From an uncultured Planctomycetota bacterium (lineage in GTDB: Bacteria; Planctomycetota; Planctomycetia; Isosphaerales; Isosphaeraceae): DNA of 64,000 nucleotides. Made by a program: the position numbers and the translations under genes. Shown one piece after another: positions 1 to 42,687 of this stretch; the first letter of the stretch is position 1, and every line of letters begins with the position of its first letter. The stretch lies in assembly GCA_963845755.1 (NCBI GenBank), contig CAWJTV010000039.1, positions 32,001-96,000 of the forward strand. The letters are read 5' to 3'. The notes beneath the pieces were generated by a model. It saw only the letters and a program-made list of their open reading frames with translations. It ran no database searches and was not told the DNA's origin.

Positions 1-2432
1 CTCGGGCGCAGGCTGGAGGGGGAGGGGGTGGCCTGCCGCATGCTCCACGTATCGCACGCCTTCCACTCGCCGATGATGGACCCGATACTGGAGGCGTTCC
101 GCGAGTACGTGAGCCGGATCGAGTTGCACGCGCCGCGGATCCCCTTCGTCTCCAACCTCACGGGCCGATGGATCACCGACCGGGAGGCTACCGACCCCGC
201 GTACTGGGCCCGCCACCTCCGGCGCACGGTCCGGTTTGCCGATGGCCTGGCGGAGCTCGTGGGCGAGGTCGCACCCATGCTCCTCGAGGTCGGGCCGGGC
301 GATGTTCTGAGCACGTTCGCGCGTCAGTGCGGCGAGACCGACGTCTTTACGTCCCTACCCCATCCGCGGTCGGCGGAGCCCGACTCCGAGCACGCGCTCG
401 CGACGCTGGGCCGGCTCTGGATCGCCGGCGCGGCGGTGGACTGGGCCGGGTTCCACGAGCACGAGCGGCTGTGCCGAGTGCCCCTGCCGACTTATCCGTT
501 TGAACGTCGCCCCTATGTCGTGCAGCCAAGCGGGAAGCCCGTGTCACGGGGCGACATCGGAGGGCTGCCTCCGAAGAAGACGGACCTGGCGGACTGGTTC
601 TATGTCCCGACGTGGAGACGAACCCCAGCGCCGTCGAACATTGCATCCCGGTCGCCAGCCGGCAGAGGGCCGCTGGCTGGTGTTCGCCAACGACACGGCG
701 CTCAGCGGGTCGATCGTCGGCGCTCTGGCGGCGGCGGGCCGGCCCGTGGCGACCGTGCTCGAGCGACCGAGCCGCTCGCGCCGCGGGACCTCCTACGGAA
801 TCCGGCCGGGGGAGAGTGAGGACTACGAGTGGCTGCTTAGCGAACTCTCGGGGCAAGGCCTGGACCCCGACCATATCGTTCACCTGTGGAGCGTCACGGA
901 GGGCCGCGAGCCGGCTCAGCCCGATGAGACCGGTTTCTTCAGCCTGATCGGCCTCGCGCGGGCCTGCGCCGACCTCCCGGACGAGAAGCGGCGAGACGTG
1001 CTCGTGGTCTCCGACGGTCTGCACTCCGTTCACGGAGGCGAGATTTTCTTTCCGGAGAAGGCCACGCTGCTCGGCCCGGTCAAGGTGATCCCGCAGGAGA
1101 TCACGTCGCTGCTCATGCGGGCCGTCAACGTCGAGGGCGTCTCGACGGGGCTCGAGCGAGAGCGCCTCGCGCGTGAATTGCTGCTCGAGATGGCGGTGGC
1201 CCGCGAGACCTCCCTGGCAGCCTATCGGCGAGGGCAGCGGTGGGAGCAGAGGTACGAGCCGCAGAGGCTAGACGAGCCGGACGGCGTGAGGTTGCGGCGG
1301 AGGGGGGCCTACCTGATCACCGGCGGGCTGGGGGGAATCGGGTTGGTACTCGCGCGGTGGCTGCGCGGGAGTGTCAGGCGAGGCTGGTGTTGACCACGCG
1401 GGGCTCCTTCCCGGCGCGCGACGACTGGCAGGAGTGGCTGGACCGGCACCCCGACGCTGAAGCCAATTCCCGCAGGATCCGCGCCTTGCTCGAGATCGAG
1501 GCCGCCGGTGCGGAGATCCTGATCGGGGTCGCGGACGCCGCCGACGAGCGGGCCATGGCGGCCGCCATCGAAGGGGCCTGGATGCGGTGGGGCAGGATCG
1601 ATGGCGTCATCCATGCGGCGGGCCTGCCCGGCGGCGGGCTGGTCCAACTGAAGACCCGGGAGGCTGCCGCGGCGGTCCTCGCCCCCAAGGTCAAGGGGAC
1701 CCGGGTCCTGGAAGACCTGCTCCGGGAGAACCCGCCGGATTTCCTGGTCCTTTGCTCGTCGATCAACGCGATCGGTGGCGGATCGGGTGCGGTCAACTAC
1801 TCGCCGCCAACCTGTTCCTGGACACCTTCGCGGCCTCGCCGCACGCGCTGGCCGGGACGCACGTGGTGGCGATCGGATGGGATGCCTGGCAGGAGTCGGG
1901 CATGGCCGCCAGCCGGGTCGTCCCGGCACACATGCGCGCGGCCCAGGCGCTGTTCCTCGAGCAGAAGATCCGGGACGACGAGGGGATCGCGGCGCTGCGG
2001 CGGGTCTTGGGCACGCGGCTCGAGCGGGTGGCGGTCATCCCGCAAGACCTCGCGATGCTGTTGCAGCTCCTGGCTGAACGGGAGCGGGCCGACGCGGGGG
2101 AGGCAACGGAAGAGGGCGCCGCGATGACGTCCCCGCCCCGGCCGGCGGCCGGGGTTCGAGGGAGGATCCTCGAGATCTGGCGGGAACTGCTGGGGATCCG
2201 GGAGATCGGGCCGGATGACAACTTTTTCGAGCTTGGGGGCCACTCGCTGCTGGGGACCAGCATGCTGTCGCGTGTGCGCCGCGAGCTCGGGGTCTCGCTC
2301 CCGCTGCGTGCCCTGTTCGAGGCACCGACGGTGCGAACCTTGGCCGAACGGGTCGAGACGCTGGTCTGGGCGGTCGCGGGCGTCCCCGCGCGGGATGGAG
2401 CCGAGGCCGACCGCGAGGAAATTGAAATATGA
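1..2432 (+). CDS. Type I PKS, C-terminal part (AT-KR-carrier protein), 5'-truncated, frameshifted
   Basis: ORFs 28-819, 500-1393, 1240-2127 and 1587-2432 stitched. AT HAFHS (malonyl-type), post-[23 protein letters not shown], carrier DDNFFELGGHSL, acidic C-terminus ADREEIEI. Confidence 0.9.
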
Positions 2433-41273: not shown

Positions 41274-42687
41274 ATGAGGAGCGAGACCCCGTTGAATCCG
41301 AACGCGGACATGATGACTGCCGAGCAGAAGCGCGACCTGCTCAAGCGACTCCTGCGGAGGGAGCTCGAGCTCGAGCGGTATCCGCTCTCGTATAATCAGC
41401 GCCGCCCTCTGGTTCCTCCACCGCCTGGCGCCGGCGTCGGCCAATTACAATGTGGCGATCGCCACACGTGTTGCACCGCCGCTTGACCTCGGAGTCTTCG
41501 AACACGCGCTGCGTCAGGTCATGGCTCGACACGAACCACTGCGCTCAGTGGTCGGCGCAGGACTCCGCTGGACCCTGGCAGCGGCTGACGTCGGTACCGC
41601 CTGCAGTCGAGGTGCACGATGTCCGAGGCATGTCGCCAGGGCAACTTCAGGGTCTCGTCGAGGCCGATTATCGCCGGCCGTTCGACTTGCAGGGACGTCC
41701 GCCGTTGCGGATCTCGGCCTACCGTGGGACCGACCACGACGTGATTCTGATCAATGCCCACCATCTCGCCCTCGACGCTCAATCCTTGCTCGTCCTCATC
41801 GAAGAGTTGCGATCGGCGTACGAAGGGACGGCCCTGCTGCCGCTGACAGCGGCTTATCGTGATTTCGTCTACTGGCAGCGGGACATGCTCGCCAGCCGGC
41901 GCGCCAGGGTCCTCGAGGAGTACTGGTCCGAGCGTCTCGCGGGCGAACTCCCCGTCCTGAACCTGCGCTGCGCCGAAGGCGCCCCGAGATGCCCTCCTAC
42001 ACGGGAGGCTCGGTCCCTCTATCGATCGAGCCCCCGCTGCTCGAATCGTTGCGGGCACTCGCGCGCCGTGAGCAAACCACCCTGTTCACCGTTCTCCTCC
42101 TGGCCTGGAGCACGCTCCTGGCCCGCGAATCCGGTCAGTCGGAAGTCGTCGTCGGCACGCCGGTCTCGGGCCGTACACGCCCGGAATGGGCCACGATCAT
42201 CGGCTGCTTCGTCAATACGCTCCCCCTGCGCGTCCGCGTCGATGCCTGGCAACCGTTGGAGCCTCAACTTCCGTCGGTGATCGAGACGGTGCGCGGTGCA
42301 TTGGACCACCAGGATCTCCCCTTCTCGTGCATGGTCAACCTGCTCAAGGTGTCGCGAAGCGCCACGCACTCCCCGCTCTATCAGACGATGCTGAACGTAG
42401 TTCGCGTTCCCCGCACGGCCGGATTCGAAGACCTGTTCCTGGCCGATCACACGGGTGGCATCCCCTTCGGCAACTCCCGCATGCGAACGTTACCTCTCGC
42501 CCAGCAGCAAGGTCAATTTGACTGGTCGCTCGAGCTTGCTGAGTTCGAGGAAAGCATGGAGGGCAACCTGAAATACAGCGACGATGTCGGGACCTTAGAT
42601 GATGCAGTGCGACTCGCCCGTTTGCTTCTGTCCCTCCTCGCGGAGATGATTCCCGGGCGTGACGAACGTGAGGAACTGGCGATCTGA
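41274..42687 (+). CDS. Stand-alone NRPS condensation domain protein, frameshifted
   Basis: YPLSYNQ..LWFL (C1), RPFDL, HHLALDAQS active site, IGCFVNTLPLR, HQDLPF; no A or PCP domain; ends RDEREELAI. Start could also be ATG 41310. Confidence 0.85.

Follow-up and report, generated by a model that had tools for sequence, protein, structure and literature searches.

A nine-module polyketide-peptide gene cluster in an Isosphaeraceae planctomycete, with a working order that may be rotated relative to its gene order

In what order do the proteins of a large polyketide-peptide assembly line work, and what might they make, when two condensation domains stand at the junction between polyketide and peptide? 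The question is raised by a stretch of 64,000 nucleotides (the window; G000:C39:32001-96000, where G000 is the host genome) from contig CAWJTV010000039.1 of an uncultured planctomycete (assembly GCA_963845755.1). We give a probability of roughly 60% to the full model described here, in which a single-strand, mostly translationally coupled operon of cis-acyltransferase polyketide synthase (PKS) and nonribosomal peptide synthetase (NRPS) genes works in an order that is rotated relative to its gene order. Judging from sequence, the cluster is real and probably functional, and it encodes an orphan pathway, as an earlier note on this DNA had proposed. The host is an Isosphaeraceae planctomycete: G000 has 163 matches to DUF1559, versus none in 14 control genomes, and G032, a genome from the same family but a second genus, is labelled Isosphaeraceae. 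Our searches, which compared proteins rather than whole clusters, found no characterized close relative.

The content of the window was read from Pfam matches to the + strand frame fragments (24 + 30) and from motifs in the translations, with frameshifts ascribed to the assembly. We abbreviate ketosynthase as KS, acyltransferase as AT, dehydratase as DH, enoylreductase as ER, ketoreductase as KR, methyltransferase as MT, the acyl and peptidyl carrier proteins as ACP and PCP, and the condensation, adenylation, thioesterase, and beta-hairpin docking domains as C, A, TE, and bhD. Positions 1-42687 of the + strand, which are split into many frames, encode the end of a PKS module (AT-KR-ACP), bhD-C-A-PCP-TE, a type II thioesterase (TEII), six PKS modules (M1 to M6), and a free C domain (Table 1). 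This reproduces exactly the string that the earlier note had reported (seven PKS modules, one glycine NRPS module, a free C, and a TEII). Its extension logic for 7568-41268 (KR; DH-ER-KR; MT without KR; DH-ER-KR; DH-MT-KR; DH-KR; then C) was borne out as well, and both short helical termini that it quoted are present in the translations. It had also advised recovering the sequence upstream; NRPS-A and the KS-AT of PKS-B were found there, and the cluster starts 5.5 kb before the window. In all, the cluster spans about 48 kb and comprises nine modules, two glycine NRPS and seven cis-AT PKS, as well as a terminal TE, the TEII, and the free C domain. New in our analysis are the second glycine module (upstream), the type I TE, an exporter stub, a working order, and the oddities of the junction.

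All seven PKS modules have KS, AT, and ACP matches, so each has its own AT. The KS Cys/His/His, the AT GHS, the carrier-protein Ser, and the C-domain HHxxxD are intact. ATGA/GTGA-type overlaps or short gaps were seen at 9 of the 11 gene junctions inspected; the larger gaps are between NRPS-A and PKS-B (about 40 bp) and between M5 and M6 (about 220 bp). The likeness of the spacer in M1 to DH is not significant (E = 0.09), and we treat this spacer as a probably degenerate domain.

The two C domains at the junction are of different kinds. In a tree of 82 C domains, the five free-C sequences form one clade (SH-aLRT 99) within a group (support 100) of acyl-accepting domains, which are those that follow PKS modules or acyl carriers; the C domain of NRPS-A instead falls with LCL domains. 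In all orthologues whose sequence spans the motif, HHxxxD is kept in both domains. The NRPS-A C domain reads HHIAADG in 5/5 orthologues, and its conservation (72%) is close to that of the adjacent A domain (78%). The free-C orthologues (P0001-P0004, L111, and L114) all end in R-E/D-E/D-x-x-hydrophobic. We also considered whether either might be a heterocyclization (Cy) or epimerization (E) domain, and rejected this on the motifs and the tree.

The docking regions point to a particular arrangement. The cluster has exactly two tails that resemble short linear motifs (SLiMs), REELAI on the free C and REEIEI on PKS-B, against two beta-hairpin domains, on NRPS-A and NRPS-C. The beta-hairpin family PF18563 (TubC_N) scores 58 bits in NRPS-C, which is above the cut-off, and 23 bits in NRPS-A, which is below it, where the match is partial and broken by an indel; the domain is listed for the orthologues P0027, P0028, P0031, and P0146. 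The earlier note had likened the short helical termini to class 2 docking domains, a kind in which two-helix C- and N-terminal domains share a conserved hydrophobic pattern (CurG/H, CurK/L, and Bamb_5925/5924 are characterized pairs). Short amphipathic termini were seen on all modules, and the match to CurL begins at residue 9 of M4, but matches to DEBS (class 1) begin at residue 14. M6 ends in a helix, and the free C that follows it begins with a coiled-coil helix. M1 alone does not have an N-terminal docking helix.

From the domains, motifs, conservation, and C-domain clades, we infer an order, docking pairs, substrates, a product, and some looping. The order would be M1 to M6, free C, NRPS-A (glycine), PKS-B (KR), NRPS-C (glycine), and TE. 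M1 is placed first because it alone lacks the N-terminal helix; it would begin the chain with no loader, and M1 to M6 would be separate proteins joined via short helical docking domains. If these modules act collinearly, they would build R-CH(OH)-CH(CH3)-CH2CH2-CO-C(CH3)1-2-CH2CH2-CH=C(CH3)-CH=CH-CO-. The free C would use its N-terminal helix to dock to M6 and its SLiM-like tail to engage the beta-hairpin domain of NRPS-A, and would couple the chain to glycine. PKS-B would then add malonate and reduce it, giving a 4-amino-3-hydroxybutyryl (GABOB) unit, and its SLiM would pass the chain to NRPS-C, which would add the second glycine. Finally, the Cys-type TE would release the product, and the TEII would edit. 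By the usual signature rules, glycine is the presumed substrate of both A domains, the AT of M1 presumably takes methylmalonyl, and malonyl would serve the remaining ATs.

In the predicted product, a 4-methyl-2,4-dienoyl chain is attached through an amide bond to 4-amino-3-hydroxybutyryl-glycine; the chain also has a ketone, with one or two methyl groups at the alpha position, and, distally, a methyl-hydroxy unit. This would be an undescribed methyl-branched fatty chain capped with glycine-derived units. Two other chemistries were considered and rejected: O-methylation, because the MT motifs are of what we take to be the C-MT type, and a tetramate formed via an inactive KR in PKS-B, because both genomes have the catalytic residues of this KR.

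Some flux may loop back through the intact LCL-type C domain of NRPS-A, which would add further GABOB units. The ACP of PKS-B is the only carrier with a SLiM-like tail, so the C domain of NRPS-A has just one canonical donor, which is its own downstream module. A C domain with this donor suggests pass-back and a (GABOB)n series. The promiscuity of SLiM/beta-hairpin pairing (PMC9113145) is one precedent. The thalassospiramide synthetases (10.1101/560987; for this and the other papers cited here, we refer to the portions that were accessible) likewise have an NRPS followed by a PKS module and make gamma-amino acid units, and they provide an experimental precedent for pass-back extension. Here, in contrast, pass-back would take place between separate proteins, by SLiM/beta-hairpin docking, and with glycine. 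A broader proposal is speculative, and we would bet against it: that the cluster belongs to a mobile, cross-lineage family in which the head is conserved and the polyketide tail can be exchanged, that its stand-alone, SLiM-tailed C primes a glycine/PKS loop, kept cycling by beta-hairpin docking, to give acyl-(4-amino-3-hydroxybutyryl)n-glycine oligoamides, and that a His-less Cys TE from an unstudied clade releases them by noncanonical chemistry.

Several points weigh against the rotated model. First, the FR-901375 system can do without its SLiM, and its beta-hairpin domain holds the ACP directly (PMC13324335), so the pairing of tails with domains cannot be read from sequence alone. Second, we found no acyl ligase, GNAT, KSQ, or free ACP that might serve as a loader in the 30 flank fragments scanned; modular hybrid lines usually have a loading module or other priming enzyme, with known exceptions. 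Third, the AT, KR, and A-domain substrates are assigned by signature rules that we assume apply, and the order of M2 to M5 is simply taken from gene order. Fourth, the ABC exporter is internally deleted in G000, perhaps by decay, and the TE, which does not have the canonical His, may be inactive or use a different mechanism. Fifth, no contig listed for the four read sets compared bridges 42.7-45 kb. Sixth, tandem C domains can be relics. In 28 of 80 metagenome loci (a hand count in which many loci are redundant), a lone C stands before a second C, in most cases downstream of a PKS and upstream of C-A-PCP, and these lone C domains carry 41-69 extra residues that resemble the remnant of a truncated C-A.

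These pairs lend weight to a strictly linear line with a single product, acyl-GABOB-Gly, and one redundant C domain: either the free C, as a mere adaptor while the C of NRPS-A forms the bond, or the C of NRPS-A, as a structural leftover while the free C forms it. Most modular lines are collinear. We put the linear line a little short of even odds: both C domains keep HHxxxD and are well conserved between genera, and the free C has a dedicated, conserved tail instead of an A-domain remnant. Chemistry may still reveal a plain linear lipopeptide. The accessible part of a review of C domains (PMC11546977) has nothing on tandem C domains. Among the metagenome loci there is one widespread system, A-KS-AT-DH-KR-ACP, lone C, C-A-PCP-C-A-PCP-TE (L024, L121-L123, L130, L133, L137, and others); one copy is labelled Terriglobales, and its second C domain is on a long branch of the tree.

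The other unusual component of the rotated line is its terminal TE. In G000, G032, and P0146, its nucleophile is Cys (GxCxG) and there is no His after strand 8. An alignment-based structural model (pLDDT 90.7) is an alpha/beta hydrolase whose best matches are 7crn, 7dxo, and 4zxh, with a TM score of 0.71 to 7crn and 4zxh, and it places the Cys in the nucleophile elbow. After strand 8, the loop reads Asn/Asp-x-Gly or Asp-Thr-Asp, and an Asp follows strand 6 (position I). ObiF1, SulM, and AB3403 (PMC11298585) have the same fold and a Cys in the elbow; ObiF1 and SulM, however, keep the triad His, with Asp at position II. The general TE triad is described in PMC10510592. In the accessible literature on GxCxG thioesterases there is no description of a His-less Cys TE.

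We aligned the TEs of G000 and G032 with 42 matches picked by similarity to the query. Of the 44 sequences, 22 have Cys without His, 8 have Cys with His, 12 have Ser with His, and 2 are gapped. Many of the His-less TEs end C-A-PCP-TE proteins, often with a beta-hairpin domain, and they include records from Steroidobacteraceae and Deltaproteobacteria. Both this type of TE and the double-C junction recur in relatives. A broad clade of TEs (P0147-P0157, P0159-P0161, P0165, P0169, and P0175) has a Cys nucleophile and reads Asp/Asn-Ser-Gly where the His loop would be; its members are often the last domain of bhD-C-A-PCP-TE proteins. Elsewhere in the phylum, the four further TE matches in 400 genomes do not belong to the His-less clade, since all of them keep His. 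A structure search of the Atlas returned generic thioesterases only.

Is the G000 copy instead a decaying, recently inserted island that makes no product? Insertion sequence (IS) remnants lie on both sides of it, the exporter has been lost in frame (about 1.4 kb is missing relative to G032, where the gene is near full length, which is the one real-looking lesion), the TE does not have His, and the genes are broken in many places. Scanning frame paths across the cluster revealed 50 shifts; with gene borders removed, about 30 of them are within genes (by hand count). However, G000 (14.3 Mb in 49 contigs, 88% complete, 3.3% contaminated) is broken elsewhere as well: several flank genes are frame-broken at a similar rate, and rpoB and rpoC are split, with stop-to-stop frames of 678 and 681 amino acids around their motifs (the full proteins are roughly twice as long). 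Also, the orthologues of the N-terminus of NRPS-A, the free C, and NRPS-C are whole where G000 is broken. Because of the split rpoB and rpoC and the whole orthologues, the frame breaks in the cluster are best read as assembly errors, not decay, and pseudogenization as their cause was rejected on the state of rpoB and rpoC. Relative to G032, 7 of 36 one- or two-base gaps fall at runs of at least 3 bases, in an alignment that is too divergent for gaps to be placed reliably. With the His-less TE conserved in G032 and P0146 and the other catalytic motifs intact, we consider decay unlikely. Still, the sequence of G000 needs polishing, and the hosts are uncultured.

How the pathway is distributed bears on whether it belongs to these bacteria. 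G032 contains a syntenic core (NRPS-A, PKS-B, NRPS-C, TEII, M5, the KS of M6, and the free C) that is 65-77% identical to that of G000 at the nucleotide level and 55-79% identical at the protein level. The gene order there is NRPS-A, PKS-B, NRPS-C, ABC exporter, TEII, M5, M6, and C, and the opposite strand has five different early modules (KS-AT-DH-MT-ER-KR; AT-less KS-MT-KR; KS-AT-KR; KS-degenerate AT-MT; and KS-AT-DH-ER-KR). The first module of G032 also begins at KS. Its M6 is recombined: the KS is kept (76%), the DH has lost its His, and an MT stands in place of the KR. A metagenome contig (L111) with M5, M6, an EamA-type transporter, and the free C has the same DH-KR form of M6 as G000. 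G000 and G032 share a conserved peptide head but differ in their polyketide tails. Within the otherwise cis-AT line of G032, one module is AT-less (KS-MT-KR-ACP; L012, G032:C1:1553206-1558704) and another has a degenerate AT with GHGAG (L018/L012, G032:C1:1544312-1548610). No stand-alone AT was seen in this line, and a neighboring AT may act in trans.

The free-C orthologue was detected in 2 of 121 family genomes (G000 and G032); 19 more of the 121 have other C-domain matches, at 40% identity or less. At a stricter cut-off, with four candidates scored per genome, 2 of 401 class genomes gave the orthologue, and it was not found in G001, which is from the same genus as G000 and is 87% complete. 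Metagenome proteins are 76, 59, 76, and 43% identical to the free C, 70-73% to NRPS-A, and 59% to the TE of NRPS-C. All 150 matches listed from a profile search with the free-C alignment were giant NRPSs of over 4,200 amino acids.

Horizontal movement is suggested by the patchy spread of the cluster, its IS borders, and its base composition. The GC content of the cluster is 70.1%, compared with 64.3 +/- 1.1%, and in tetranucleotide composition only 1 of 268 windows of equal size is as distant; GC at third codon positions (GC3) is 0.85-0.90 in the cluster and 0.81-0.85 in the flank genes measured. The left border has IS5 and ISKra4 remnants. Neither G001 nor G032 showed an empty insertion site, the flank matches being scattered paralogues. 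A quick tree of 86 KS sequences, sampled from the neighbors of C-domain matches and with no labelled myxobacteria, showed that the KSs of PKS-B, M5, and M6 are orthologous across genomes and that those of M3 to M6 in G000 group together; the cluster did not nest among cyanobacterial sequences, and no donor could be named. Thus, the horizontal acquisition that the earlier note had raised is plausible from GC content, tetranucleotides, IS remnants, and the 2/121 distribution, and no cyanobacterial or myxobacterial donor emerged from a tree of this sampling.

Could the cluster be a close relative of a characterized pathway and make a known class of compound? The crocacin pathway of Chondromyces crocatus has the nearest layout that we know of. 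It is said to have a monomodular cis-AT PKS chain followed by Gly-PKS-Gly, as here, and reportedly also has an aryl starter with its loader, O-methyltransferases, and a terminal C-like release domain. Our cluster's domain list has no aryl loader, O-methyltransferase, or C-like terminal release domain. Instead, methylation would be at carbon only, the module between the two glycines has KR as its one reductive domain, a free C stands where PKS meets NRPS, and a Cys-type TE would release the product. Besides orthologues, the closest relatives are at most 47% (N-terminal region of NRPS-A), 39% (free C), or 43% (full TE) identical, and none of them is named as part of a characterized pathway, so a known class seems improbable.

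In the proposed rotated order, the line may work like the monomodular hybrids of myxobacteria and cyanobacteria, by analogy. As in the pathways for enacyloxin, tubulysin, epothilone, rhabdopeptide, and the depsipeptide histone deacetylase inhibitors (PMC9113145 and PMC13324335), a TubC_N domain precedes C and the tails are short, charged, and hydrophobic. Those SLiM/beta-hairpin hybrids also combine a conserved part with a variable part. Their known SLiM bearers, as far as the accessible text goes, are carrier proteins, oxidases, Cy domains, and one E domain, with no free acyl-accepting C among them; here, in contrast, one SLiM-like tail is on a stand-alone C domain with no carrier. The KS-AT of M4 has its best match to a solved structure in CurL from curacin biosynthesis (PDB 4mz0, E = 3.7e-258), and the malonyl AT and C-MT-style methylation are also curacin-like. 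The module order and termination are unrelated, however, and the cluster has no beta-branching or halogenation cassette.

The last alternative, an assembly chimera in which the cluster of a higher-GC organism was joined to planctomycete DNA at IS elements, would account for the atypical composition, the mobile elements at both borders, and the lack of a read or listed contig that bridges the junction, but it is very improbable: two misjoins would be needed, both flanks are Isosphaeraceae-like, the cluster's GC3 is close to that of the flanks, and in G032 the core is on a 2.6-Mb contig of host-like GC content (64.4%), where it directly adjoins ordinary host genes. Because of that G032 contig, the pathway belongs to Isosphaeraceae, whatever the status of this one join in G000, and with a second genus carrying the core, a chimera is unlikely at the family level. 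We checked the junction in five read sets that contain only 5-14% of the sequence words, and compared four of them to window positions 30001-50000. Read cover at the junction was mostly of transposase or unrelated KS and kinase genes; one set had short, near-identical pieces in both cluster and flank, at a depth of 2-4.

The earlier note knew of no planctomycete product from a multimodular PKS of this size. As far as the accessible parts of three papers go, this stands for characterized products: a 2025 review (PMC12078418) has five Planctomycetota compound classes, none firmly tied to a modular type I PKS, cabrillospiral (PMC11187115) is a loose candidate, and PMC4982196 also bears on the absence of a firm link between product and cluster. 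The rarity of the size did not hold up. A modular KS query had matches in 38 of the 121 family genomes and in 34 of 401 genomes from the phylum; of the 400 others, 7 had at least 4 scored KS matches. Among eight large-PKS regions that we inspected in other Planctomycetota genomes, G288:C1:7239000-7280000 (L195-L197) has an adenylating domain followed by seven cis-AT modules in a row, G234:C164 has at least five cis-AT modules, and G087 (same family; C1:1100000-1149000, L200-L202) has five PKS and at least four NRPS modules. The cluster is not unique in size among planctomycetes. G353:C127 contains another large, unrelated modular cis-AT PKS or PKS-NRPS cluster.

If the conserved-head and loop reading is true, characterizing the cluster could link a planctomycete product to a modular type I PKS for the first time. 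The cluster is a concrete, predictable target in a phylum with few product classes. G000 and G032 amount to a natural domain-swap experiment, with the same head, different tails, and a change from DH-KR to MT in M6. The cluster also poses two questions of enzymology that are of interest outside the phylum. One is the role of a pair of live C domains at a single PKS/NRPS junction; the other is the way in which a Cys thioesterase that has no His frees its product.

Table 1. Features of the cluster and its right flank (positions are those of the window unless a contig is named)
Feature	Position	Strand	Domains and remarks
NRPS-A	C39:26494-29816 (L002:10494-13816), upstream of window		bhD-C(LCL, HHIAADG)-A(Gly)-PCP; one indel near N-terminus
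PKS-B	1-2432 (begins C39:29858)	+	KS-AT(malonyl-type HAFH)-KR(Lys/Ser/Tyr/Asn present)-ACP; C-terminal SLiM-like tail REEIEI
NRPS-C	2429-6501	+	bhD-C-A(Gly)-PCP-TE; TE Cys nucleophile GFCVG, no His in loop after strand 8
Cyclic-peptide ABC exporter stub	6498-6794	+	In-frame fusion of first ~45 and last ~45 codons
TEII (editing)	6791-7575	+	GHSFG
M1	7568-12712	+	KS-AT(IASH, methylmalonyl-like)-(putatively degenerate DH-sized spacer)-KR-ACP; no N-terminal docking helix or loading domain
M2	12709-18904	+	KS-AT(YAFH)-DH-ER-KR-ACP; fully reducing
M3	18901-23162	+	KS-AT(HAFH)-C-MT-ACP; no KR
M4	23159-29466	+	KS-AT(HAFH)-DH-ER-KR-ACP; fully reducing
M5	29463-35701	+	KS-AT(HAFH)-DH-C-MT-KR-ACP; orthologues in G032, L111
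M6	35920-41268	+	KS-AT(HAFH)-DH-KR-ACP
Free C	41274-42687	+	N-terminal coiled-coil docking helix; HHLALDA; C-terminal SLiM-like tail REELAI
Transposase remnant, right border	42929-44958	+	Weak MULE / IS66 / IS256 / ISKra4 matches
Host flank	45259-51454	+	ECF sigma factor, Ser/Thr kinase-WD40, DUF1559 (50291-51454); planctomycete accessory families

Planctomycete markers follow the cluster (DUF1559, an extracytoplasmic function [ECF] sigma factor, and kinase-WD40); the earlier note had recognized such marker genes there. More broadly, window positions 45259-62042 hold repeated cassettes of ECF sigma factor and Ser/Thr kinase-WD40/TPR genes, which are typical of the accessory genome of the host. 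In comparisons with G032 and G001 DNA, the best matches of the left flank reach 93%, and those of the right flank are at 74-88%. On the left, a TIGR03032 / PKD-laminin region (L001:9584-13791) shares 93% DNA identity with G032, although that genome is from another genus. This suggests that the lineages have recently exchanged accessory DNA.

Elsewhere in G000, C-domain matches occur at one locus, on C36, where a second, separate multimodular NRPS cluster lies (G000:C36:138000-160400), and KS matches occur at a few lower-scoring loci. G000 has three matches to the phosphopantetheinyl transferase family. Finally, a 19-bp AT-rich inverted repeat (L002:9558-9687) lies about 0.8 kb upstream of NRPS-A and is possibly the site of a regulator.

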